Below the pieces are notes generated by a model that was not told where the DNA came from, did no database searches, and saw only the letters and a program-made list of their open reading frames with translations. The position numbers were made by a program, and so were the translations under genes. From an uncultured cyanobacterium (GTDB lineage Bacteria > Cyanobacteriota > Cyanobacteriia > Leptolyngbyales > Leptolyngbyaceae), in the NCBI GenBank assembly GCA_963766075.1, contig CAVYAN010000010.1, positions 32,001 to 96,000 of the forward strand: a stretch of DNA of 64,000 nucleotides. The letters are read 5' to 3'. Below, one piece after another: positions 47,478 through 63,723 of this stretch (positions are counted from its first letter, which is position 1; every line of letters begins with the position of its first letter).

Positions 47478-48351
47478 GGTAGTGTTCTAGACATGGGGAT
47501 TGATGCAGTCAAACTGCTCGTCCAAACTCATAGCGATTGACGAACAAACCAATCACGATGTCGTGCAGCCATTCAGATTTGGAGAAGCAGATCGTTTTGC
47601 GAGCTAATTGCTTAATTCGGGTTCGTAACGTTAAGTGTTTGCGCTCGATTTTTTGGGTATTCCACTTGCCAACGACGTGCTGGTCTTCATCCAACAAACG
47701 AGCCTATGCTCCCCAGCCTAAGCCTGCGGCACGCTCAGCGAACGGTGTAAAAAGTTTGAACGCCAAATGGCTCTAACAATGCCTTTAACTCGACCAATGC
47801 CTGAACTTTATGATCTGCCAGCACATACGCCAACACTTGTCCGGTTTGATGATCAATTGCGTGCCATAACCAACGCTCCTGTTTTTTACACCGGACAAAA
47901 CTCCACATCTCGTCTGCTTCAGCTTCCTCGACGTGTTTGGCAACGGTCACAGTCGTTGGCTTGAGTTGTTCCAACAAAGGACGGTTGCCCTGTTCAAGCT
48001 GACGACCTTTTTTTAATTCTTCAATCACGGTGGTGGGACTAATCTTGAGTACTCGTGCGGTATCGCGAACCCCGCTGCCGTTAAGCACCATCTCACGAAT
48101 CTGTTGCTTCACCGCTGGCAAGTAGCCTCGGTAGGAATACTCTAGAACAAAGCTATGACGCGTGCATTCAGGATTGCGGCATTTATGTCGCTGCTTACCT
48201 TCGGCGGTTTTGCCATGCTTGACGATATTCGGGCTGTCACAGGTGGGGCAATGTACAGGTTCAAGTACCATTGCTGTCGTTTAGGAATGATCTAACTGAT
48301 TCAAGTAGTCCTATTTTCCCTGATCTCTATCCCCATGTCTAGAACACCACC
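47478..48351 (-). mobile_element. IS1-family element, inactivated
   Basis: 23-bp IRs ggtagtgttctagacatggggat / atccccatgtctagaacaccacc (1 mismatch). ORF pieces 47735..48271 and 47509..47697 (CPTC, ADEMWSFV, IERKHLTLRTRIK). Internal insertion and stop. Confidence 0.9.
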
Positions 48352-49427: not shown

Positions 49428-50213
49428 ATGGCCTCTGTAGTGCAGATTGATTCCTCCTTGGCGCAAGCGTCGTCGTCCTCCCCATCTTCCCTGCAGCAAG
49501 TCTGCCAAGGGCAACTGTCCACCCCGGAACTGCTGCGCCTCCTCCAGCAATATCGCCTGCTGCCCCAACTGCTCCGGGAATTGGTCATTGACGCAGCGAT
49601 CGCCCCCATCTCCTGTACCTTTGCAGAAACCGTAGAAGTCTGCAAACAGTTCTACGCCCAGCATCAAATCACCAATGATGCCGAGCGCGCTGTCTGGCTG
49701 GAACAAAATCAGCTCACCGCAGCCGATCTGGATCATCTAATGACGCGTAACCTACGCCTAGATCGCTACAAACAAGCCACCTGGGGTAGCAAACTCGAAT
49801 CCTATTTTCTGCAGCGCAAAAAGCAGCTCGACCAAGTTATTTACTCCTTGCTGCGGGTAGAAGATCGGCACTTAGCCCAGGAACTCTACTTTCGGATTCA
49901 AGATGGCGAGCAAACCTTTGCCGCAGTGGTGCGGGAATTTTCCCAGGGCCAAGAGGTCCAAACCGACGGCATGATTGGGCCGGCCACCTTGAATACTCCA
50001 CACCCCGCGATCGCCCAGCGTCTCGCCACTCTCCAACCCGGTGAGTTATCTCCCCCCTTCCAAGTCGGGCAATGGGTGGTGATCGTGCGATTAGAAAAAT
50101 TGATCGCTGCCCAATTCGATCAAGCCATGCAGCAGCGCTTACTCACCGAATTATTTGAGCAGTGGGTCCAAACAGAAGTCACCTTAGCCAGCCAGCGGTC
50201 ACGTCTAATATGA
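49428..50213 (+). CDS. PpiC/parvulin-type peptidylprolyl isomerase associated with T1SS
   Basis: LDQVIYSLLRV, AQELYFRI, FSQGQE..TDG.IGP; ATGA overlap with the next gene. Confidence 0.88.
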   Translation: MASVVQIDSSLAQASSSSPSSLQQVCQGQLSTPELLRLLQQYRLLPQLLRELVIDAAIAPISCTFAETVEVCKQFYAQHQITNDAERAVWLEQNQLTAADLDHLMTRNLRLDRYKQATWGSKLESYFLQRKKQLDQVIYSLLRVEDRHLAQELYFRIQDGEQTFAAVVREFSQGQEVQTDGMIGPATLNTPHPAIAQRLATLQPGELSPPFQVGQWVVIVRLEKLIAAQFDQAMQQRLLTELFEQWVQTEVTLASQRSRLI

Positions 50214-53210
50214 CCTACACCCAAATCAACGCTGCCCTTTTCCTGGCAGACATCGCCCCATTTAATCAACTGTCCACCGCCGATCGGCAAGGTTGCCGAT
50301 CGGTTGCAGCCCTACCGCTACCGCATTGGACAGCCAATTTTGGTACGGGACAGACTGCCTGCCCAAATCCACATTCTGTACGAAGGCACAGTCCGCCTGC
50401 TGGGATACGACCCCGCCCACCCCACCCCGATCACACTCCAGCGCCTTGCCCCGGGAGCCGTTCTCGGTGCAGTGGGCTGGGTGCGCAGTGTCCCCTGTGA
50501 GGCCGCGATCGCCGCCACAGAATCGATCTGCCTCAGTCTCAATGCACCAGACTTTCTGGACTGGCTTAGCCACCATCCCGAAATTGCGGCCAGCTTCCAA
50601 GTCCCCAACCTGATCGAAGTCTTTGATATCGCAGGCCGAGAACTGCACCGCCGCGCCGATCGCACCCACCTGTTGCAAGCCCACAGCGTCACCAACCTCA
50701 AGGACTTCGCCAGCCTGATCGCCCTCCCATCAGCCCGCATCGCCCCAGCAGACAAGCCCCTCTTCCCCGATTGGGACTGGTTTGTCAGTGGGGGGCCCGA
50801 TGTGTCTACCGGGCAAGTGGGCGATCGCTACTCCTCTTCTCTCGCCGAACCCACGCTGCGACTGCTGGGCTTCCCGCGATCGCTATTTGCCCCCAGCGCT
50901 GCCAATCCAGCGCCCAGCACTCCAATATCGGTACCCATTCCACCCATCCACCCAATCCCCGACGCCCCCGCCACCCCACCCGAAGCCGAAACCCCACTAT
51001 CCCGTCAACCGGCTCAAAAATACCCCCACATCAAGGGACACGGTCCAGTGGAAGCCGCCGTGGCCAGCTTTCACATGCTGGCACAGCACCACAGCCTACC
51101 GTTCCGGCGGGACATGGTGCGCAAGGTCATCCTTACCCAACAGCAGCGGACTGGATCGATTTCCCTCCAGTTCTGCGGAGCCGTAGCCGAATTGATGGGC
51201 CTACAGGCCCAGTTGGTCACAGTCCCGCTGGAGGCGATCGGTCGCTTGCCCCTGCCCGCCCTGATTCGCTATGCGGACGGGCCAGTAGTCCTGTATGAGG
51301 CCAATACCAAGCAGGCCGTGCTCGGGGTACCGGAGATGGGGATCGTGAAGCGGGCGATCGCAGATTTGCTCCCGCCAGAAGCTCAGGATGATCGCCCCCC
51401 TGGCACAGACACTGATCCCAATGCTGGCGAGGGCACCATCGCCGCCCTCCTGCTGCAACCCACGCGGGATACTCCCCAGCAAACCTTTGGCCTCAGTTGG
51501 TTTCTCCCCTCCCTGTACAAATATCGCCGCATTTTGGTGGAAGTGTTCATCGCCTCCTTTTTTGTGCAGTTGTTTGGGTTAGCCAATCCCCTCATTACCC
51601 AAGTCATCATCGACAAAGTACTGGTGCAAAACAGTCCGAATACCCTGCAAATCCTGGGGGTATTTCTAATTGTGATTGCCCTGTTTGAAGCCGTACTGAC
51701 CAGCTTGCGGACCTACTTGTTTGTCGATACGACCAATCGGATTGACCTGGCCCTCGGAGCCGAAATTATTGATCACTTGCTGCGGTTGCCATTGCGGTAT
51801 TTTGAACGGCGGCCCGTGGGCGAACTGGCCACCCGCGTCAATGAATTAGAAAATATCCGTCAATTCCTCACCGGAACGGCCCTAACAGTAGTCTTGGATG
51901 CGGTCTTTTCCGTCATCTACATCGTGGTCATGTTCGTTTACAGTTGGTTGCTGACTATAGTGGCACTTGTAACCTTGCCACTGTTTGCGTTATTAACCAC
52001 GATCGTGTCACCCATTGTGCGTCGCCAGTTGCGGGTCAAGGCAGAACGCAATGCCGAGGCTCAGTCCCATTTAGTCGAGGTGCTGTCCGGTATTCAAACC
52101 GTTAAGGCCCAGAACATTGAAATGCGATCGCGTTGGAAATGGCAAGAGCGCTATGCCCGCTACGTCAGCGCCGGGTTCAAGACCACCCTCACCTTCACCG
52201 CCGCCAGTTCCACCAGCAACTTTTTGAATCAACTGTCCAGCTTATTGGTGCTGTGGGTGGGAGCCTACCTCGTGCTCCAGGGCCAGTTAACCCTGGGCCA
52301 ATTGATTGCCTTCCGCATCATTGCCGGATATGTCACCAGTCCCCTGCTGCGGCTGACGCAACTCTGGCAAAATTTTCAGGAAACCGCCCTGTCTCTGGAG
52401 CGCCTCAGCGACATTATTGACAGTCCCGTAGAAGCCGATGCCCTAGATCGATCCAACATCCCCATGCCGACTATTCAAGGTCATGTAGCCTATGAAAACG
52501 TCTCCTTCCGGTTCAATCCCGCCGGTCCCCTGCAGCTCAATAATGTTAGTGTGTCCTTCCCTGCTGGCCAGTTTGTGGCCATTGTCGGCCAAAGTGGTTC
52601 CGGGAAGAGTACCCTCATGAAACTACTGCCCCGGCTATATCCCCTAGAGTCCGGTCGCATTCTCATTGATGGCTACGACATTAATAAAGTCGAGCTTTAC
52701 TCCCTACGTCAACAAATCGGCATCGTTCCCCAGGACACTCTCTTATTTGAAGGCACGGTACAGGAAAACATAGCCCTGAATCATCCCGATGCCACCCCGG
52801 AAGAGATTATTGCTGCTGCCAAAATCGCTGTGGCCCACGAGTTCATCATGGGCCTGCCCAATGGCTACAACACCCGTGTAGGAGAGCGAGGGGCTTCGTT
52901 ATCGGGGGGCCAACGTCAACGGGTAGCGATCGCCCGCACCATTCTGCAAAATCCCAATCTATTGGTCATGGACGAAGCCACCAGCGCCCTTGACTACGAC
53001 TCCGAGCGCCAAGTGTGTTTAAATTTGGCGGAAGCCTTCCGCGATCGCACCGTATTCTTCATCACGCATCGGCTCAGCACCATTCGCAACGCCGATCACA
53101 TTTTGATGATGGATCAAGGTTTAGTTGTGGAACAGGGCACCCACCCAGAATTAATGGCCCTCAAAGGTCGATATTTTTGTCTGTATCAGCAGCAAGAATC
53201 CCAGATGTAA
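50210..53210 (+). CDS. Type I secretion ABC transporter (cNMP-like + C39-like + ABC; HlyB-like), apparent frameshift near 50290
   Basis: MTYTQINAALFLADIAPFNQL in one frame, continuing KVADRLQPYRYRIGQ in the next. GQSGSGKS, LSGGQ, DEATSALD. Confidence 0.88.
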
Positions 53211-53268
53211 CTGCTATCAACCGCGCCATTCAACCGCACCATTCAACCAATTGCATCAGGAGAAAAGC

Positions 53269-54820
53269 ATGGCATTGTCATGGGGAAAGAGGTCGTGGGA
53301 AAAGAGGCCCTGGGGAAAAGAGGCCCTGGGCAAAGGCCAGAAAAATAATCCGGTGCCATCACCACCGTTCGATCATCCCGTGATTTTGCAGCGATCGCCG
53401 ATTGCCTCCCGATTGGTCATCTGGGGAATTGTTGGCTTCACCAGTGCAACGCTGATCTGGGCCAACTTTGCCAGAATAGATGAGGCCGTCCCCGCCACCG
53501 GAAACCTCACCCCCCAAGGGGCCGTGCGGGCCGTGCAACTTCCCCTCAATGGCAAAGTTAAGGACGTCTTTGTCAAAGAGGGCCAGATCCGTAAAACAGG
53601 GCGATTTGCTACTCACCTTGGATCAGTCCGCCGCCGAAGCCCAACTCACCGCACTCAAAAAAATTCGCGGGGCGATCGCCGCCGAAACCCAACTCTACCG
53701 ACAAGTCATGGCAGGAACAACGGTCAGCTCTAATGCCGCCAGCCCCGACCCCGTCAGCCTCAACCCCATCACCCCCAATCCACTCCTCGATCTGACCAAA
53801 AGCCGATCGGCCCTGGCCACAGAAATGGAACTGTTTCGCGCCCAACTATCAGGAACAGCAACCGGAAAAACACTCTCTGCCGAACAGCAGTTGCGCGTAC
53901 AGGCAAGCCAAGCAGAACAAGCCTCCCGCCAACAGTCCGCGCAACTGGATATTGCCCAATTAGAACGACAACTCGCCCAAGCCCAAGCAAAATTAACCAA
54001 CGCCCAAGACAACCTGCGGATCAATCAAGGCATCTATCAAGATTTAGCTCCCGTGGCCCAAGCTGGCGGACTCTCCAAGGTGCAGTACCTGAAGCAGCAG
54101 CAGGAAGTCACCAATGGCCAAATGGTGGTGGAGCAAACGGTCCAGGAGGTGGCACGACTGCAACTCGCCATTGCCCAATCCCAACAACGCCTCAAAAATA
54201 CCGTAGCCGGATCAAACCAAGAAATTCTGACGCGCCTGGGTGAAACCGAAAAAAAGATTGCGGAAATCGACAGCCAGTTGAACAAAGCGATCGTCGAAAA
54301 CGACAAAAAACTTTCAGAAATCGACAGCCAAATCAGCCAAACTCAAGTAACTCTGCAATACCAGGAGCTTCGCGCCCCAGTGGATGGCGTCATTTTTGAC
54401 CTCAAAGCCGCCAATCCCGGCTTTGTCGCCACCTCCACCGAGCCCGTGCTGAAGGTCGTGCCAGACAAGGCGCTGATGGTGGAAGTCTACATCACTAATA
54501 AAGACATTGGCTTCGTCAAGGTAGGCATGCCCGTAGACATTCGCGTCGATTCCTTCCCCTTTAGTGAATTTGGTGACATCAAAGGCGAATTAGTCGCCAT
54601 TGGTTCTGACGCTTTACCCCCCACACAGTTGCGTCCCTATTCCAGTTTCCCAGCCAAAATCAAACTGAATCAGCAAACCCTCACCGTGCGCGATCGCCCC
54701 GTGCCCCTACAGTCTGGGATGTCGGTCAGTGTGAATATCAAAGTGCGCGATCGCACGATTATCAGCATCTTCACAGATGGCTTCCGTCAACACATTGATG
54801 ATGTAAAAACCATGCGATAA
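53269..54820 (+). CDS. HlyD-family secretion adaptor, apparent 1-nt insertion near 53587
   Basis: FDHPVILQRS, TM, IDEAVPATG, VKEGQ(a)SVKQGD, LRAPVDG, FPFSEFG, LQSGM. Confidence 0.88.
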
Positions 54821-54889
54821 GGAATGAGCCTTAAATAAGTTCCATGTCTTTTCCATATTTTTATAGAGGCCAAGTTATAGAGGCCAAGT

Positions 54890-55056: not shown

Positions 55057-55188
55057 TAGCGGCAAAGCAGTTGGCAGGGAGTCTCGGCAGTGTTTGTAAG
55101 GTCGGTCAACATTGAATCGCGGCGGGATTGAGCCGTGTGCAGTGCAGTACAGTGGGTGAATAGAGAGCAAATCATGGAGGGCGGCGGG

Positions 55189-55827
55189 ATGAGTCTGACA
55201 CTGTATCTACTCCGGCATGGTGAGACGGTTTACAGCCAAACGGGAGGCTACTGCGGCGAACTTGATCCGGACTTAACGGCGGATGGAGCCCAAATGGCCA
55301 TGGACTTTGCCGCAGCGTATGACACGGTGCCGTGGCAGGCGGTTTACGTAAGCCCGATGCAGCGCACGATCGCCACAGCGACGCCCCTCTGCCAAGCTAC
55401 GGGGATCAACATGGACCTGCGGGCGGGCTTAAAAGAACTCCGCTATGGTCTATGGGAAGGGCAAACCCTCGCCTGGGTGAAAGAAAACTATGCTGAGGAC
55501 TATGTCCGCTGGCTGACTGAACCCGCCTGGAACCCGCCCACGGGCGGCGAAACTGCCGTGCAACTGGCCAGTCGCGCTGTGCCGGTGATTGCCGAAATTG
55601 AAGCTACTTTCCAGGAGGGCAATGTTTTGGTGGTGGCGCACAAGGCCACGATTCGGATTATTTTATGCAGTCTCCTGGGGATCGACCTGGGGCGTTACCG
55701 CGATCGCATCAATGTCTTAGTGGGCTCCGTCAGCGTGATTCGATTTGCAGACCACGGCCCGTTATTGGAGCGCTTGGGCGATCGCGCCCATCTAAGTCCG
55801 CGACTGCTCTCGCTTCCCGGCACCTAA
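55189..55827 (+). CDS. Histidine phosphatase (phosphoglycerate mutase-like) family protein
   Basis: LLRHGET, SPMQRT, ELRYGLWEG, GGET, VVAH. Confidence 0.92.
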   Translation: MSLTLYLLRHGETVYSQTGGYCGELDPDLTADGAQMAMDFAAAYDTVPWQAVYVSPMQRTIATATPLCQATGINMDLRAGLKELRYGLWEGQTLAWVKENYAEDYVRWLTEPAWNPPTGGETAVQLASRAVPVIAEIEATFQEGNVLVVAHKATIRIILCSLLGIDLGRYRDRINVLVGSVSVIRFADHGPLLERLGDRAHLSPRLLSLPGT

Positions 55828-55992: not shown

Positions 55993-56020
55993 GGTATATT
56001 ATTTCTTGGAAATCGCCTTA
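55993..56020 (+). mobile_element. Orphan right end of an ISAzo13-like element
   Basis: ggtatattatttcttggaaatcgcctta resembles the IR at 45548-45575. Confidence 0.55.
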
Positions 56021-56233
56021 GTGGACGAAGGATCACTCCTTGTGGACAAAGGATCACTCTTTGGTGGACGAAGGAACACTGCTTGTGGACGAAGGATCAC
56101 TCCTTGTGGACGAAGGATACTCCTCTTGTGGACGAAGGATCACTCCTTGTGGACGAAGGAATACTCCTTAGTGGACGAAGGATCGCTCCTTGTGGACGAA
56201 GGATCGCTCCTTGCGAATAAAGGATTGATCCTT
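56021..56233. repeat. Tandem array of 21-22 bp units gtggacgAAGGAtcacTCCTT (9 good copies + degenerate)
   Basis: Unit starts 56021, 56042, 56064, 56085, 56106, 56128, 56149, 56171 and 56192; no unique spacers. Confidence 0.93.
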
Positions 56234-56365
56234 GTGAACCAGGCGCCTCTTCTTTTGGGTGGACGAAGAGGCGCTTTTTCGGAACTTAGCCACGTCGCCA
56301 TGGCCCGATCGCCCCTGTGCCGCCATCGGCAAACCACCCGTTGCGATCGCCTGTCCGTCACTGCG

Positions 56366-56638
56366 TCACCGCGTCACCCCATCACCCCCGCCCGTGCCAA
56401 TTCCCCGCGAGGCTACCCGAATAATCATGGAACTGGATTTGAGGGCGATGGCCTTGCTCCACTCGCTGGCTCCGATCACATTCACTTGATGCAGCAGGTT
56501 GATCATGGCGGTGACGGCGGGGCGGGAGCCGGTCAGGGTGAGGTTGACCCAGTCGGGGTCGCGCTGGGTGAGGGCAGTAATGAAATCGGCAGGCGCGTTT
56601 TCGCAGGTGTTTCCATCACTCATGGGTTGAGTGGTCAT
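56366..56638 (-). CDS. Small cyanobacterial hypothetical protein (GS..AV...I..LH......EWS pattern)
   Basis: RBS ggag before ATG 56638; LTGSRPAVTAMINLLHQVNVIGASEWS pattern recalled from a cyanobacterial small-protein family. Confidence 0.6.
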   Translation of the reverse strand: MTTQPMSDGNTCENAPADFITALTQRDPDWVNLTLTGSRPAVTAMINLLHQVNVIGASEWSKAIALKSSSMIIRVASRGIGTGGGDGVTR

Positions 56639-57167
56639 GATTGGGTCTCCTTGTTTGTTTGCAGGGGAGGGAAACCCAAAAACCAAAGCCACCCCGATGC
56701 GTTGCAGAGCAGGGTGGCTTGTAAAATGTGACAAGCCGCCATGCTGGTAGTATCAGCTTGGGGGTTAGCGATCGCTCGGTGGTGCAAACACTGGGCGATT
56801 GCGTTTTATGGCAGAGGCTTTTGGGCGTCTGGGTGAGCGCAGTTGAACCTAGGCAACTCACCTTAACGCAAGAGAATACCGAATTGCGCTGCACTTTGCA
56901 AGTCCTATTTTGAGGCCATGGGCTAAATCACAAAATTCTACGGATCTCGTGCTGAAATTTCACTGCCCAGCGTCAAGGTGTCATTGGGCCCATATTTAGC
57001 ATCGACAGGAGGTTTGACTATGTGCGGGGGACGAAGGGTGCGGGGGTGAATGGGGCCGGGATGAACTGAGCGATCGGTCTAGACGCCATATTTTTTATGA
57101 AGATTTGCCCGAGTTTTATGGCACATTTTCTAGCGCGACGATAGAATTCTGTCTAAATCCTCTAGGT

Positions 57168-57334
57168 GGGGACATTAGACAGATCTGTGTCTGCCCTAAT
57201 TGCCGTTTTGGGGATATAGCCAGACGCGATTCTGCCTATATGACCTTCTGGGGGTATATGGACAGACTGGATCTGCCTATATCCCCGAGTCGGGGGTGTT
57301 AGACAGATCGGATCTGTCTACAAACTAGTTAGGT
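57168..57334 (+). other. Putative integron attI-like region with four ~41-bp palindromic units and core site GTTAGGT (57328-57334)
   Basis: GTCTACA-AACTA-GTTAGGT simple-site layout; the core is the exact complement of the attC inverse core ACCTAAC downstream. Confidence 0.6.
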
Positions 57335-57408
57335 GTCTGGAGCTTTTTGCCCGATCACTAGAGTCATATTCATGTAAGATTCGTGAAGGATTCGACGAGA
57401 AAATACTG

Positions 57409-58368
57409 ATGACTCAAGTAACATGCTTAGAAATCTGTGCTGGCGCTGGTGGTCAAGCCTTAGGGCTAGAGCAGGTAGGCTTCGAGCCTCAAGCACTTGT
57501 GGAGATTGATGGAGCTTGTTGTAACACTCTCAGATTTAATAGACCTCAGTGGAATGTCATAGAAGGCGATCTGAGAGACTTTGAGTGTAAATCATTTGAA
57601 GGAATTGATTTGTTAGCTGGAGGTGTGCCTTGTCCTCCATTTTCAAAAGCAGGAAAGCAGTTGGGAAAAGAAGATGAGCGCGACCTTTTCCCCGAAGCCT
57701 TGCGTTTAGTAGATGAATGCAGACCTCGTGCTGTCATGTTAGAAAACGTGCGAGGATTTTTAGATGCTGTCTTTGAAGATTATCGAGGTAATCTCAAACG
57801 GCAACTTGAAAAGATGGGATATGTAACTGATTGGAGGTTATTAAATGCTTCTGATTTTGGGGTGTCACAGCTTAGACCCCGTGTTGTCATCATAGCTATA
57901 CGCAAAGACTTATCAGAAAATTTTTTATGGCCAAAGGCTTATGGGCAAAATCCAGCAACTGTTGGGACACTTTTATATGATCAAATGGCATCAAGAGGAT
58001 GGAGAGGTGCTAAGAAATGGAAACAACAAGCCGATGATATTGCACCCACAATTGTTGGGGGGTCTAAGAAACATGGCGGCCCCGATTTAGGTCCTACTCG
58101 TGCTAAGCGAGCTTGGGCAAGCTTAGGGGTAGATGGAATGGGCATAGCTAATGAGCCACCTGACAAAGACTTCTTGGGGATGCCCAAACTAACAGTTGAA
58201 ATGGTTGCTAGGATACAAGGCTTTCCCGATAATTGGCATTTCACAGGCAAGAAAACCCCTGCATACCGTCAAGTTGGTAATGCATTTCCTCCGCCCGTTG
58301 CTCAAGCTGTGGCAAGAGAGGTTTATAGCTGCTTGACTCATAGGAAAATATTTGCAGTTGCCAGTTAA
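57409..58368 (+). CDS. DNA (cytosine-5) methyltransferase, M.NgoMIV/M.NaeI-like
   Basis: CAGAGG, GGVPCPPFS, ENV, QLRPR, TRD APTIVGGSKKHGGPDLGPTRAK, QVGNA. Confidence 0.92.
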   Translation: MTQVTCLEICAGAGGQALGLEQVGFEPQALVEIDGACCNTLRFNRPQWNVIEGDLRDFECKSFEGIDLLAGGVPCPPFSKAGKQLGKEDERDLFPEALRLVDECRPRAVMLENVRGFLDAVFEDYRGNLKRQLEKMGYVTDWRLLNASDFGVSQLRPRVVIIAIRKDLSENFLWPKAYGQNPATVGTLLYDQMASRGWRGAKKWKQQADDIAPTIVGGSKKHGGPDLGPTRAKRAWASLGVDGMGIANEPPDKDFLGMPKLTVEMVARIQGFPDNWHFTGKKTPAYRQVGNAFPPPVAQAVAREVYSCLTHRKIFAVAS

Positions 58369-58379
58369 ATGGTTATCTT

Positions 58380-58976
58380 ATGTCAGAAAAGAAAGGCGCA
58401 AGAGCAAAACTCAGAGAACACTTTCTGAATAACATCGGGAGGGTTATGGATTCTGATGAGCTTAGAGAAGTAGCAGGAGGTATTACGGAATGGGCAAGAC
58501 GAGTAAGAGAACTGCGCTCCGAAGAAGGATATCAAATTCAAACACACAACGACAGAGGCGATTTAAAGCCTGGTCAATACATCCTTGAAGATCCCAAGCC
58601 AATTCCTGCTTTTGAAAGAGCAATATCTAAGGAAACACGAGCGTATGTTCTCGACAGAAATGGATTTACTTGTCAGACGTGTGGTGCTGTAGCTGGAGAG
58701 CCCCATCCCTATGACCTTACGAGAAAAACTCGACTGCATATTGGTCACATAGTGGATAAATCTCAAGGAGGTACTGACGACCCATCAAATCTTCGTGCAA
58801 TTTGCTCTGTGTGCAACGAAGGAGCCTCAAATTTAACTCTGGAAAGACCATCAAACTTAAAACTTTTAGCACAGGTCAGGCGGGCGAAAGGTAGCGATCA
58901 AGTTGAACTGCTTAAGTGGCTTGTTCGGAAGTATCCAAAACAGACTGAGGAGTTCTTGGATGAGAAAAACACCTAA
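58380..58976 (+). CDS. HNH endonuclease (CxxC/CxxC zinc) with N-terminal HTH-like region; probable restriction enzyme
   Basis: WARRVRELR; CQTCG, HIGHI, GG..DPSNLRAICSVCN; 11 bp downstream of the MTase. Confidence 0.85.
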   Translation: MSEKKGARAKLREHFLNNIGRVMDSDELREVAGGITEWARRVRELRSEEGYQIQTHNDRGDLKPGQYILEDPKPIPAFERAISKETRAYVLDRNGFTCQTCGAVAGEPHPYDLTRKTRLHIGHIVDKSQGGTDDPSNLRAICSVCNEGASNLTLERPSNLKLLAQVRRAKGSDQVELLKWLVRKYPKQTEEFLDEKNT

Positions 58977-59060
58977 CATAATCCCGTTGCACACCGACCG
59001 TATGGAGTTGGTTGGTTGATTCGAAAGGTCACTAGCGGCGGGTGAAGCGGGACGTTATGT
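58971..59060 (+). other. attC site (90 bp)
   Basis: ACCTAAC (contains the HNH stop) ... TCCCG-TTGCAC-ACCG-ACCG pairing with CGG-CGGGTG-AAGCGGGA ... GTTATGT, with unpaired extrahelical bases. Confidence 0.85.
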
Positions 59061-59083
59061 AGCTTCAACTTCATTTTAGTCAG

Positions 59084-59175
59084 GTGAATATCAAAGTGCG
59101 AGATCGCATCATTATCAGCATCCTCCCAGATGGCTTCCATCAACACATCGATGATCTAAAAACCATGCGATCAGG
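59084..59175 (+). pseudogene. Diverged duplicate of the hlyD-like gene 3' end (54731-54822)
   Basis: 92 bp, 9 mismatches by hand alignment, stop TAA changed to TCA. Confidence 0.9.
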
Positions 59176-59249: not shown

Positions 59250-59571
59250 TGCATCAGGTCATAAAACGAACAGTAGCGCAACGCTCCCGGCAGTTTATTG
59301 CCAAAGTGCCACGCCTCCCATTCTCCATCTTCAAAAACAACATCAGGAATGAAAAATTAATGGAGAAAATGTCGCATTCCAGTCAGCACCAGCACCACAC
59401 CTAATTCATTCGCCGCCTTAATGGAATCCTGATCCCGCACACTCCCACCGGGCTGAGCGATCGCCACAATCCCCGCCGCCGCCGTCCGCACCGAATCATC
59501 AAACGGGAAAAATCCATCACTCGCCAAAACCGCGCCCTGCGACTGGATCCCGCCTGCTCTAAAGCAATTTT
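59250..59571 (-). pseudogene. purH: Diverged duplicate of the purH 3' end and downstream region (62045-62370)
   Basis: ~322 bp near-identical copy with a 3-bp and a 1-bp deletion; stop at 59357-59359. Confidence 0.92.
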
Positions 59572-59780
59572 TGTAATCCTTTTGTGGAAGCTCCTGCTTC
59601 CTAACCTTTTGGGAAGCAAGAGCTTCCTGGTTAGCATTACCAAGCAGAGCTTACTAACGAGCTTTTTTCTTCGCCCTTGGGCCAATCATGCCGGGGCGAT
59701 CGTCGTCATAGGAAGGGGCGATCGCAAGAGAAAAAGAATAGACTTAAGGGATAAAGATAATGACAGCTTCGAGGTTGTCA

Positions 59781-60089
59781 ATGAAAACACCAGAAACCCT
59801 CAAAATTGAAGCAGTTCTTCATGAGCAGCGCGATCGCATTCTAGAGCTTGCCCTTCAACACGGCGCTAGAAACGTGCGGCTCTTTGGGTCCGTCGTAAGA
59901 GGAGAAGCCCAGCCCAATAGCGATATTGACTTATTGGTCGATTTGGGCGGACCCTTAAGTCCCTGGTTCCCCGTCGGGCTGATTCAGGATTTAGAAGCAT
60001 TACTCGGGCACAAAGTGGATGTGGTCACTGAAAAGTCCCTACACTATTTCATCCGCGATCGCATCTTAAAGGAAGCGCGATCGCTATGA
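59781..60089 (+). CDS. Minimal nucleotidyltransferase (MNT) antitoxin
   Basis: LFGSVVRGEAQPNSDIDLLV, KVDVV; ATGA overlap with the HEPN gene. Confidence 0.92.
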   Translation: MKTPETLKIEAVLHEQRDRILELALQHGARNVRLFGSVVRGEAQPNSDIDLLVDLGGPLSPWFPVGLIQDLEALLGHKVDVVTEKSLHYFIRDRILKEARSL

Positions 60090-60418
60090 AAGACAATCGT
60101 GTTTATCTGATTCACATTAGAGACTGTATTCAACGTATCGAAACTTACACGGCTGAAGGAAAAACAGCCTTTTTTGCCGATCTGAAAACTCAGGATGCGG
60201 TGATCCGAAATCTGCAAACGCTATGTGAGTCAGCCCAACGACTGCCCGATGCGTGGAAAGCGATCCGCCCCGAAATTGACTGGAGAACAATTGGCGATTT
60301 TCGCAACGTCCTAGCCCACCAATATTTAGACATCGACCTTGATATTGTCTGGAATGTGGTGGAGAACTATCTGCCAGATTTAAAGCAAGCGATAGAAGCG
60401 ATTTTCCAGCAGGTTTAG
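60086..60418 (+). CDS. HEPN/DUF86 (HepT-like) RNase toxin
   Basis: DAVIRNL, IDW, RNVLAHQY (Rx4HxY), IVW. Confidence 0.92.
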   Translation: MKDNRVYLIHIRDCIQRIETYTAEGKTAFFADLKTQDAVIRNLQTLCESAQRLPDAWKAIRPEIDWRTIGDFRNVLAHQYLDIDLDIVWNVVENYLPDLKQAIEAIFQQV

Positions 60419-60753
60419 ACTGAAAAGCCAGAAACTGGGGTTCTCGCAAAGAGGTTGGGCGGTGGCGCAGCCTGTGCAGAGCACTTATCGCCGTGACTCC
60501 TGGCAGAACCCCGGTTTCTCAAACCCCGGCGATCGCCCTTGAGCCAATCATGCCGGGGCGATCGCCGCAATGGGAAAGGCCGATCGCGCCAATCCCTGCT
60601 AGAACCCCATTTTCTCGAATTCCCGAGATCGCCTTTAAGTTGTTTCTGTGCAAGAGTTGATGGAAGCGGCAAAAAAAGCGGCAAAATTTGCTGGCTGAAA
60701 GTCTATCTCCTAGAATGGGAGAATGTTTCAGCGTATTCCTGATCGGCAAAGAT

Positions 60754-61935
60754 ATGGTAGATTCGGCGATTCCCTATCGACAATACGAGCCAAGCCTTCT
60801 CAAACCTGTCTATCCCCAAAGAACCAGACACTTAGAAGACTTAGCGGTACTCCTTGCTGGAAAAGCGGGTCAACTCACTCAGGGACTCCATCCGATCGTG
60901 GTTCGATCGCTCGGTGCATTGGTGCGATCGATGAACTGCTATTACAGCAATCTGATTGAAGGACATCGCACCCGTCCCATCAATATCGAACGGGCCCTAT
61001 TACAAGATTTCTCTAGCGATCCAGAGCAACGCAATTTGCAACTCGAAGCGAAGGCACACATTGAGGTGCAAACGCTGTTGGATTTTGACCCTGCTTGGCA
61101 AGTTCTCGATGTCGTGAGTCCAGAATTCATCCAACAGGTCCATCGGGAGTTTTATCAACGATTGCCAGACGTGTTTTGGCAACTCGATCAAGTAGCAGTT
61201 CAGCCTGGAGAGTGGCGCACAACGAACGTGCAGATTGGTCGTCACATCCCGCCCCCCCCAGAGACGCTAACCGTTTTTCTCGCCCGCTTCGCCCAAGTCT
61301 ATCAACCGGATCGACTCTCTAAAATAGACCAAATTCTTGCAGCCGCAGCATCTCATCATCGATTTGTCTGGATTCACCCCTTTCTAGATGGCAATGGTCG
61401 TGTGGTGCGGCTCTTCTCCCATGCCTATTTTCAGCGTGTTGGGGTTGGAAATAGCCTGTGGTCAGTTTCACGGGGGTTAGCGCGACAAATGCAAGAGTAT
61501 CGATCGCGTTTAGCTCAAGCCGATCAACAACGACACAACGACTACGATGGGCGAGGCAACCTAAGCATGGCAGCCTTAGTCAGCTTTTGTGAGTTTTTTT
61601 TGGAGACTTGCATCGACCAGATTGATTTCATGATGAAACTTTTGGAACCGACGCAACTGTTAGCTCGGATTGAGGCGAATACCGCGATCGCGGTTCAGCA
61701 GAAATCTCTGCTACCGGGTAGCTTTGCGTTGCTAAAGGCAGCTTTTTGGGAAGGAGAAGTGGCACGAGGGCAGGCAGCAGCGATTACTGGCTATCAAGAA
61801 AGACAGGCGCGATCAGTATTGAAACGCCTACTGGATCAGGGGTTGCTAGTAGCAGACTCTCCAAAAAGTGCGGTTCGATTGGGATTTCCAACCGTCGCAG
61901 CAGAGCAATGGCTCCCGCGTCTATGGATTGATTAA
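60754..61935 (+). CDS. Fic family protein with C-terminal HTH
   Basis: YYSNLIEG, WIHPFLDGNGRVVR. Confidence 0.92.
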   Translation: MVDSAIPYRQYEPSLLKPVYPQRTRHLEDLAVLLAGKAGQLTQGLHPIVVRSLGALVRSMNCYYSNLIEGHRTRPINIERALLQDFSSDPEQRNLQLEAKAHIEVQTLLDFDPAWQVLDVVSPEFIQQVHREFYQRLPDVFWQLDQVAVQPGEWRTTNVQIGRHIPPPPETLTVFLARFAQVYQPDRLSKIDQILAAAASHHRFVWIHPFLDGNGRVVRLFSHAYFQRVGVGNSLWSVSRGLARQMQEYRSRLAQADQQRHNDYDGRGNLSMAALVSFCEFFLETCIDQIDFMMKLLEPTQLLARIEANTAIAVQQKSLLPGSFALLKAAFWEGEVARGQAAAITGYQERQARSVLKRLLDQGLLVADSPKSAVRLGFPTVAAEQWLPRLWID

Positions 61936-62151
61936 GGCTTTGAGCCAATCATGCCGGGGCGATCGCGCTGGAACCACGAAAGGCACGATGTAGTCAGCGC
62001 GATCGCCATCCGCTAAACTAAAGGCATAGGCTCGCTTGCGTCGATGCATCAGGTCATAAAACCAATGGCAGCGCAACGCTCCCGGCAGTTTATTGCCAAA
62101 GTGCCACGCCTCCCATTCTCCATCTTCAAAAACAACATCCGGAATGAAAAA

Positions 62152-63723
62152 TTAATGGAGAAAATGTCGCATTCCGGTCAGTACCATCACCACACCTAAC
62201 TCATTCGCCGCCTTAATGGAATCCTGATCCCGCACACTCCCACCGGGCTGAGCGATCGCCACAATTCCCGCCGCCGCCGCCGTCCGCACCGAATCATCAA
62301 ACGGGAAAAAACCATCACTCGCCAAAACCGCGCCCCGCGCCTGGGATCCCGCCTGCTCTAAAGCAATTTTGGCAGACCCCACCCGATTCATCTGACCGGC
62401 CCCCACCCCCACCGTAGCGCCATCCTTGGCCACCACGATCGCATTCGACTTCACATGCTTGCAAATCTTCCAGGCAAACAGCAACTCCGCCAACTGGTCC
62501 GCCGTCGGCTGCACCTCAGTCACAATTTGCCAATCTGGCACCGGCGTCAGCAGCCGATCCGCCGCCTGCACCAAAAATCCCCCCGCAATATCCTTCACCA
62601 AATACGGACTTCCCCCACCCAAATCCGGCAAAATCAACACCCGCAAATTGCCCTTTTTCTGGAGGATTGCTGCCGCCTCCGGATCACAGCCCGGAGCCAC
62701 CACACATTCCAAAAACAACTGTGTCAGCGCCTCAGCGGTAGGCACATCAATCGCCCGATTCAACGCCACAATTCCCCCAAAGGCCGACGTCGCATCCGCC
62801 TGCACCGCCTTTTGGTAAGCCTCAAAAATTGTGCCTCCCAGGGCCGAACCGCAGGGATTATTGTGCTTAATAATCGTCGCCGCCGGTCCACTATCCGCAT
62901 CCGCAAATTCCGCAATAATCGCCCGCGCCGCCTCCAGATCCACCAAATTGTTATAGCTCAGCTCCTTGCCCTGCAACTTCTGAGCCGCCGCCCACCCCGT
63001 GGGTGTCGCCCCAGTCTGATACCAGGCCGCCGCTTGGTGCGGATTTTCGCCGTAGCGCAACGCTTGGATCCGGCTTCCCGTTACATCAAAGGTCACCGGG
63101 AGCACCGCTGTCTCCGCAGTACCGGAATTCGCTAAAGCCTGAGTTTCAAGGTACTGAGCGATCGCCCGATCATAATTTCCCGTATGCTGAAACGTCGCCA
63201 GAGCACAAGCCTGCCGAAAGGCCAGAGACACCTCCCCATTGGACTTGCGCCACTCCTGAAGATACTCGTCATACTGCGCCGGATTGCACAACACCGTCAA
63301 ATGGGCAAAATTCTTGGCAGAGGCTCGCAACATCGCCGGCCCCCCAATATCAATCTGCTCGATCGCCGCCGCCAAGGTCACCCCCGGTTGGGCGATCGTC
63401 TGTTCAAAGGGGTAAAGATTCACCACCACCAAATCAATCGGTCGAATCTGATTAACCTCTAAATCCGTCACATCCTGAGGCACATCCCGCCGCGCCAAAA
63501 TGCCACCATGGATTTTAGGATGCAGCGTCTTCACCCGCCCCCCCAAAATTTCCGGCGATCCCGTGTAGTCCGACACCTTCGTCACGGGCAAACCCGCCGC
63601 CTTCAGCGCCTGAGCCGTACCCCCACTACTCACAATGTCAAACCCAAACTCGTCCACCAAACAGCGGGCAAACTCGATTAGCCCAGTTTTATCGGATACA
63701 CTCAACAGTGCCAGCCGTGCCAT
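62152..63723 (-). CDS. purH: Bifunctional AICAR transformylase / IMP cyclohydrolase
   Basis: ALLSVSDK, GGRVKTLHP, IDIGGP, LRYGENPHQ, KHNNPCG, SDGFFPF, RHFLH. Confidence 0.98.
   Translation of the reverse strand: MARLALLSVSDKTGLIEFARCLVDEFGFDIVSSGGTAQALKAAGLPVTKVSDYTGSPEILGGRVKTLHPKIHGGILARRDVPQDVTDLEVNQIRPIDLVVVNLYPFEQTIAQPGVTLAAAIEQIDIGGPAMLRASAKNFAHLTVLCNPAQYDEYLQEWRKSNGEVSLAFRQACALATFQHTGNYDRAIAQYLETQALANSGTAETAVLPVTFDVTGSRIQALRYGENPHQAAAWYQTGATPTGWAAAQKLQGKELSYNNLVDLEAARAIIAEFADADSGPAATIIKHNNPCGSALGGTIFEAYQKAVQADATSAFGGIVALNRAIDVPTAEALTQLFLECVVAPGCDPEAAAILQKKGNLRVLILPDLGGGSPYLVKDIAGGFLVQAADRLLTPVPDWQIVTEVQPTADQLAELLFAWKICKHVKSNAIVVAKDGATVGVGAGQMNRVGSAKIALEQAGSQARGAVLASDGFFPFDDSVRTAAAAGIVAIAQPGGSVRDQDSIKAANELGVVMVLTGMRHFLH

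Follow-up and report, generated by a model that had tools for sequence, protein, structure and literature searches.

The window is the whole stretch of cyanobacterial DNA analysed here, 64 kb in length (positions 32001-96000 of contig C10, genome G000), from an assembly that is 85% complete, in 126 contigs, with a GC content of 53.5%. Within it, a two-gene unit consisting of a DNA methylase and a nuclease sits as an integron cassette behind an attI site without an adjacent integrase. The unit is likely a restriction system, with a putative role in phage defence. The features of the locus, in window coordinates, are as follows.

55135-55827, + strand: histidine-phosphatase (phosphoglycerate-mutase-like) gene, second copy (PF00300; 87% nucleotide identity to C1:45060-45722)
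56300-56920, - strand: repeated unit of ~600 bp with a 122-aa ORF (56366-56734); about 18 copies in the genome
57094-57328, + strand: orphan attI, from homology to contig C37 and genome G070; dyads starting at 57176, 57217, 57259 and 57300; crossover between G57328 and T57329
57329-59054, + strand: gene cassette, 1726 bp, first position behind attI; placed by sequence, public-contig breakpoints and the start heptamers of homologues
57409-58368, + strand: C5 cytosine DNA methyltransferase, 319 aa, putatively GCCGGC-specific (PF00145, E 4e-69)
58380-58976, + strand: HNH nuclease, 198 aa, putative cognate type II restriction enzyme (PF01844, E 1.4e-9; PADLOC REase_II, E 8e-9)
58971-59060, + strand: attC; R'' 58971-58977, 7-nt spacer (2 extra bases, 58978-58979), L'' 58985-58992, L' 59042-59048, R' 59054-59060 (model R1, 46.1 bits)
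59055-59078, + strand: stub of 24 nt, probably the beginning of a next cassette that has been truncated; contigs of runs X1 and X2 (one study) follow it for 14 nt and diverge thereafter
59079-59175, + strand: decayed second 3' end of hlyD, at which the island ends on the right (90% identity; intact copy 54725-54822)

The cassette has a GC content of 44.6%, compared with 53.5% for the genome, and contains no HIP1 sites, compared with 1.37 per kb genome-wide. From this HIP1 density and from the nearest named homologues, the host is taken to be a cyanobacterium. Its two genes are separated by 11 nt. It lies in a 4.35-kb island between the two hlyD copies, together with the phosphatase gene copy, tandem repeats, the ~18-copy unit, the attI and the stub. 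The tandem repeats number about ten, of 21-22 bp each (56016-56230); on contigs C22, C17 and C76 the repeated unit is adjoined by related arrays, and on C117 by a different type of repeat. At the right end, the hlyD copy begins at 59084 in an ungapped alignment (92 nt at 90%) and at 59079 in a gapped one, in keeping with the ~23 bp that a preliminary description of this DNA had placed between attC and the hlyD duplicate. Six of the eight altered codons in this copy are non-synonymous or a lost stop.

Other parts of the window contain further rearranged or mobile DNA. Upstream of the island there is a type I secretion cluster (49428-54820), consisting of a PPIase-like gene, a peptidase-domain ABC transporter and hlyD, the 5' end of which is seemingly split between ORFs 53251-53733 and 53480-54820. 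The ORF at 47735-48271 is, by resemblance, what we take to be an IS1-like transposase gene. Downstream, a duplicated gene end again delimits an island: an indel-bearing copy of the 3' end of purH, 95% identical (59250-59571), and the intact copy (62045-62370) enclose an MNT-HEPN pair (59760-60418) followed by a Fic gene (60688-61935).

Boundaries of the cassette

The preliminary description had proposed a two-gene cassette with true integron boundaries, and this is borne out by an attC model, by the homology of the attI site and by the same cassette in other arrays. First, the core motifs lie where they had been placed: GTTAGGT is found 81 bp 5' of the methylase start (57328-57334, with the ATG at 57409), its inverse ACCTAAC overlaps the stop of the HNH gene (58971-58977; stop codon 58974-58976), and a 90-nt site ends in GTTATGT (59054-59060). 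The start heptamer and R'' are complementary at 7/7 positions, as expected of the cassette signature that had been pointed out. The + strand of the window has two GTTAGGT motifs in all, and 0.24% of random 77-nt stretches contain one.

Second, the attC site is recognised by a covariance model made from 35 aligned sites of other cyanobacterial integrons, all next to a full intI. The sources were 19 intI-adjacent arrays in family genomes and two loci of genome G070, from which 48 canonical sites were harvested; a 58-nt site, a probable false match, repeats that were identical or nearly so and, deliberately, the closest sister site were left out. Because it was trained on rule-picked sites from IntI-adjacent arrays, the model favours cyanobacterial attC sites and under-counts others. 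In the training alignment, 94.7% of cells are paired and 14 of 19 pairs have changed on both sides; since the sites had been selected for pairing, this is no independent test. A search with such a model had been suggested as a check, and at E ≤ 1 it returns two matches in the 64-kb window: 58971-59060, at 46.1 bits (E 4e-9), and one of 15.7 bits (E 0.16). The former spans model positions 1-87 and is the sole significant attC in the window and on C10.

The window site is not a perfect attC. The closest sister site, kept out of training, scores 73.1 bits, and the lower score of the window site is explained by two extra bases between R'' and L'' (a spacer of 7 nt, compared with the canonical 5 nt) and by two unpaired outer positions of the L box. 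Contigs of the same cassette from runs X1, X2, X5 and X9 (three studies) all lack the two bases at 58978, and no L-box difference is listed for those of X1, X2 and X9. The 2-nt insertion thus appears to be either particular to the window copy or an assembly error. In computed folding, the R-box pairing probability of the window site is 0.97 in the circular form and 0.25 in the linear form; the insertion lowers the linear value from 0.87 to 0.25, and a canonical control site also gives 0.26. Since passages of PMC2727003 indicate that the central spacer of attC matters for recombination, impaired excision is plausible, and the window attC may recombine poorly owing to its two extra spacer bases. 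Simple folding of the site is no better than that of shuffles (z -0.93), and a rule-based attC scorer gives it 11.5, below the shuffled 95th percentile of 13.5. A search of the window against Rfam, which is not an attC library, gave no match. Neither a circle junction nor an empty-site joint was present in the public contigs compared.

Third, the upstream site has the architecture and the relatives of an attI. Its four dyads are spaced with a period of 41-42 bp. A 90.8% copy of 57094-57330 at C37:2466-2702 breaks at the same point, between G and TT, into a different cassette, and a 75% homologue over 189 nt (G070, contig C25) lies divergently beside a full intI, ahead of cassettes. Of the 89 family genomes, 3 matched this attI DNA. 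The alignment with one public contig begins precisely at 57328, with 158 other bases ahead of that point in the contig, and the homology of another stops at 59058. Judged by these relatives, the upstream site is evidently a retained attI; a spent attC was considered and rejected, given the G070 homologue beside a full intI and the C37 copy that breaks at the same position. A promoter scan gave four matches, with 3.4 expected, i.e., chance level. Immediately upstream, 56960-57093 is seemingly what a deletion has left of a small ORF; a longer version stands at the end of contig C117, where it also leads into the start of this attI type.

In a complete integron, intI adjoins attI; neither an integrase gene nor a fragment of one lies anywhere on C10, which extends to the whole contig the earlier statement that the window has none. 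A CALIN has at least two attC sites without a nearby intI, and this locus has one significant attC. Standard tools count attC clusters and would drop this single-attC locus, even though it retains an attI.

Other copies of the cassette

The HNH protein has 7648 relatives at E ≤ 0.001. Among the 160 homologue loci fetched (the best 80 of 533 and the best 80 of 530), a co-oriented methylase gene lies directly upstream in 158, the remaining two being cut by contig edges, and the start of a Vsr-like gene lies downstream of the pair in 17. Seven homologues match at 90% or more, six of them from the fetched loci and one from G055 (contig C50). All seven have cassette boundaries: the start heptamer is GTTAGGT, about 92 nt before the methylase, in six and GTTATAT in one, and a model-scoring attC lies on the HNH stop in five, while the other two have a group II intron in R''. 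In these homologues and in public contigs, to which the window cassette is 96.6-98% identical, the unit occurs with different neighbours at the same crossovers. The search for the cassette in other arrays, as had been recommended, was therefore successful, and a complete integron of G055 has the pair in first cassette position. Run X13 contained only other attC sites.

The preliminary description had tied its reading to the boundaries of homologous gene pairs; those of the close homologues agree with it, whereas most of the distant homologues lack them. A model attC lies at the HNH stop in 10 of the 160 loci (two apparently from the same contig) and in none of the other 150, of which a few more have core complementarity by rule. 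This suggests that the pair is a general mobile module, which takes cassette form in this cyanobacterial lineage and, here and there, in others. Its distribution is patchy, with 3 of 90 family genomes carrying it.

Three loci have opposite-strand group II intron sequence in the R'' of this cassette's attC (L099:3593-4315, L182 from 4167, and L018 after the HNH stop). The L099 intron, at about 720 nt, is too short for a reverse transcriptase. Group IIC introns that target attC sites are the subject of PMC3001079.

The methylase and the nuclease

The methylase is 69% identical, target-recognition stretch included, to plasmid methylases that are paired with NgoMIV-family nucleases. This identity makes GCCGGC the likely target, and the methylase probably recognises that motif. 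Motif avoidance supports the assignment weakly at best: among 64 palindromes, GCCGGC ranks 10th for avoidance genome-wide (O/E 0.32), third in the flanks of homologues and 20th inside the genes. The HNH protein retains its zinc and HNH residues: C98/C101, H123, N137, C142/C145 and N146 are kept in at least 97% of 144 homologues. Synonymous changes exceed non-synonymous ones 5-8 fold in the HNH gene and 2-3 fold in the methylase gene, and both genes are evidently under purifying selection. As in a type II system, an intact methylase gene is stably linked to a separate, intact nuclease gene. The nuclease has no similarity to NgoMIV (best E 0.4), and no close relatives were present in the phages, solved structures and E. 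coli genomes searched. Two other assignments were rejected: IscB (54 bits against a cut-off of 175) and Druantia (only the methylase model matches).

Integrase and attI platforms elsewhere in the genome

A genome without any integrase was rejected, and the absence noted for the window is thus a local one. Contig C41 encodes an intact IntI of 321 aa (C41:95200-96165; TIGR02249, 464.6 bits against a cut-off of 265) with its own attI and cassette. An intI above the cut-off is found in 49 of 90 family genomes, many of which also have fragments. With 150 of 1527 candidates scored, there are at least 29 attC matches on about 20 contigs of the window's genome, and one intact intI.

The genome has about eight attI platforms. 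Three of them (C17:164677, C31:99565 and C65:49077) are of the C41 attI type and have a common 849-bp internal deletion in intI, with a palindromic junction; their flanks differ, and so do their first cassettes. The first cassette of the C17 platform matches that of the intact C41 integron over 776 nt at 99.4%, their attI regions are 83% alike, and both loci reach contig ends. A gene-less cassette of ~135 bp, 97% identical between its two copies, comes first behind two attI types (C37:2701-2845 and C65:48806-48665). It may be a promoter cassette and contains what is presumably an extended -10-like motif. A third attI-like type, for which no cognate intI was found, is represented by C17:101842-102179 and C22:3-336, which are 94% alike; the C17 site has a model-scoring attC 2 kb downstream. 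Different first cassettes behind a common intI deletion, together with cassettes shared across attI types, point to loading in trans after loss of the integrase, with the caveat that several platform loci end at contig breaks in an incomplete assembly.

The ~600-bp repeated unit lies to the left of six of the seven attI platforms compared. Its 122-aa ORF has no match in Pfam, NCBIfam or PADLOC. A search of 89 family genomes for the unit (56360-56920), with at most six candidates scored in each, gave no match at E ≤ 1e-10, and the unit is absent beside the intI genes of relatives, so its link with integrons holds for this genome only.

What would an integrase elsewhere in the genome mean for these platforms? 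The window attI type goes with an integrase that is only 72% identical to the C41 IntI, and attI sites are reported (PMC2095811) to be recognised only by their cognate integrase. The cognate gene for the window attI may be missing from the 85% assembly or may have been lost. A more speculative idea, which we regard as doubtful, is a distributed integron: one intact integrase would serve at least eight dispersed attI platforms, of up to three types, spread as ~1.1-kb units with the repeated small-ORF element. It would load defence cassettes in trans, at non-cognate attI sites as well, and the window cassette would then have been locked by the 2-base attC mutation. Should a single integrase load many such orphan sites, remnants without an integrase would be live first-position expression slots rather than fossils, and there would be a natural exception to the rule that each attI serves its own integrase alone. 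In open-access text, no report of one genome with many orphan attI sites was found.

How did the cassette reach the locus?

The explanation that we favour, and consider very probable, is that IntI loaded a restriction cassette at an orphan attI, and that the right end of the island arose by a rearrangement independent of IntI. Because the genome has an intact integrase and about eight attI platforms, loading by IntI is likely. IntI would have inserted the circular cassette between G57328 and T57329 and pushed the older 24-nt cassette stub downstream. The junction of stub and hlyD is not a GTT site, so a non-IntI mechanism fits the fusion to the decayed hlyD copy. The preliminary description had pictured an integron remnant moved as a whole by another mechanism; this holds for the right-end junction, but the cassette itself was likely loaded by IntI. 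The cassette differs from public contigs by 2-3.4% and the hlyD copy has diverged by 10%, which favours later insertion by IntI, although selection on the cassette genes blunts this comparison. The right-end rearrangement is likely older than the arrival of the cassette. Once in place, the genes would be transcribed from a start either in the 80-nt leader or within the attI region, the methylase would mark GCCGGC, the nuclease would cut unmarked sites of incoming DNA, and the 2-nt insertion in the attC spacer would lower excision and tend to fix the cassette.

There are three alternatives to this explanation. First, transformation or rearrangement could have brought attI, cassette and next-cassette stub in together, as a single block out of a complete integron, to be frozen at the locus with no IntI action since. 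An island bounded by hlyD copies and containing a second phosphatase gene is consistent with block arrival, as are the imperfect attC and the reported integrase specificity of attI sites (PMC2095811). The X1 and X2 contigs match 14 nt past the crossover, which fits co-transfer with the next cassette equally well. We nevertheless think block arrival unlikely, given that platforms with one common intI deletion have three different first cassettes, that one platform shares a 99.4% identical cassette with the intact integron yet has an attI region only 83% alike, and that divergence is much lower in the cassette than in the hlyD copy. Second, the HNH protein could be a methyl-directed (McrA-like, type IV) or non-restricting nuclease, in which case the pair would not be a cognate restriction-modification system. 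In favour of this, some sources name homologues McrA, the HNH core alone matches McrA structures (E 0.02-0.08) and mREase_IV (E 0.001) weakly, and no characterised close relative was found; against it, REase_II models match better, the methylase pairing is fixed and co-oriented in 158 of the 160 loci, and in other systems methylases of this family are partnered by NgoMIV-type enzymes. A restriction-modification pair made up of a GCCGGC methylase and an adjacent HNH protein has also been proposed (in passages of PMC5446998, compared by description only), and a McrA-like or non-restricting role is improbable. Third, the notion of chance look-alike boundaries around an ordinary mobile module, to which the folding z-score, the low rule-based score and the distant homologues without attC might point, is refuted by the G070 attI homology, the exact breakpoints in genome and public contigs, the complete integron of G055 and an independent model score of E 4e-9, and has a negligible probability.

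Taken by itself, the locus is one more restriction cassette, with a widespread HNH enzyme that putatively cuts GCCGGC. Its integron context is worth more.

Comparison with known systems

KpnI-type HNH type IIP enzymes are about 200 aa long, with two CxxC pairs around the HNH site. The window nuclease resembles them in size and CxxC layout, and the PADLOC REase_II models (218-219 positions) match it weakly.

Its methylase is 69% identical to those of the NgoMIV-type GCCGGC systems on plasmids pAES2 and pLM16A1 (described in passages of PMC3832669 and PMC4447125), but the nucleases of those systems are NgoMIV-like, whereas that of the window is an HNH protein without similarity to NgoMIV. The gene pair is also like ORF48/ORF49 of the Aeromonas prophage O23A, where an HNH gene lies beside an m5C methylase shown to protect GCCGGC (according to passages of PMC5446998). 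Unlike the window pair, ORF48/ORF49 is prophage-borne; its nuclease is putative, and the likeness is one of description.

Two-gene restriction cassettes and mobilisation in trans have been published before. In the relevant passages of Darracq et al. (bioRxiv 10.1101/2024.07.02.601686), type II restriction systems with no more than two genes are described as a prevalent cassette cargo, and restriction-modification systems in cassettes are also stated in parts of PMC9892861, PMC8618304, PMC12409362 and bioRxiv 10.1101/2025.06.18.660453. The last of these, on Xanthomonas, also has passages on two-ORF cassettes and mobilisation in trans. Cyanobacterial integrons, and CALINs in IntI-bearing genomes (half of CALINs), appear in passages of Cury et al. 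(PMC4889954). Like the type II cassettes of Darracq et al., the window unit is a single cassette of no more than two genes, a compact defence system between attI and attC. It differs from them in its cyanobacterial host, its orphan attI and its methylase-HNH family, for which no characterised nuclease was found. Like CALINs and intI-deleted integrons, the locus is cassette DNA without an adjoining intI, with an IntI elsewhere in the genome; unlike a CALIN, it has a single attC, below the two-site definition, and retains its attI. Finally, the several platforms of this genome differ in their first cassettes, whereas in Xanthomonas, as far as passages of that study describe it, loci with a shared intI deletion usually have identical arrays.
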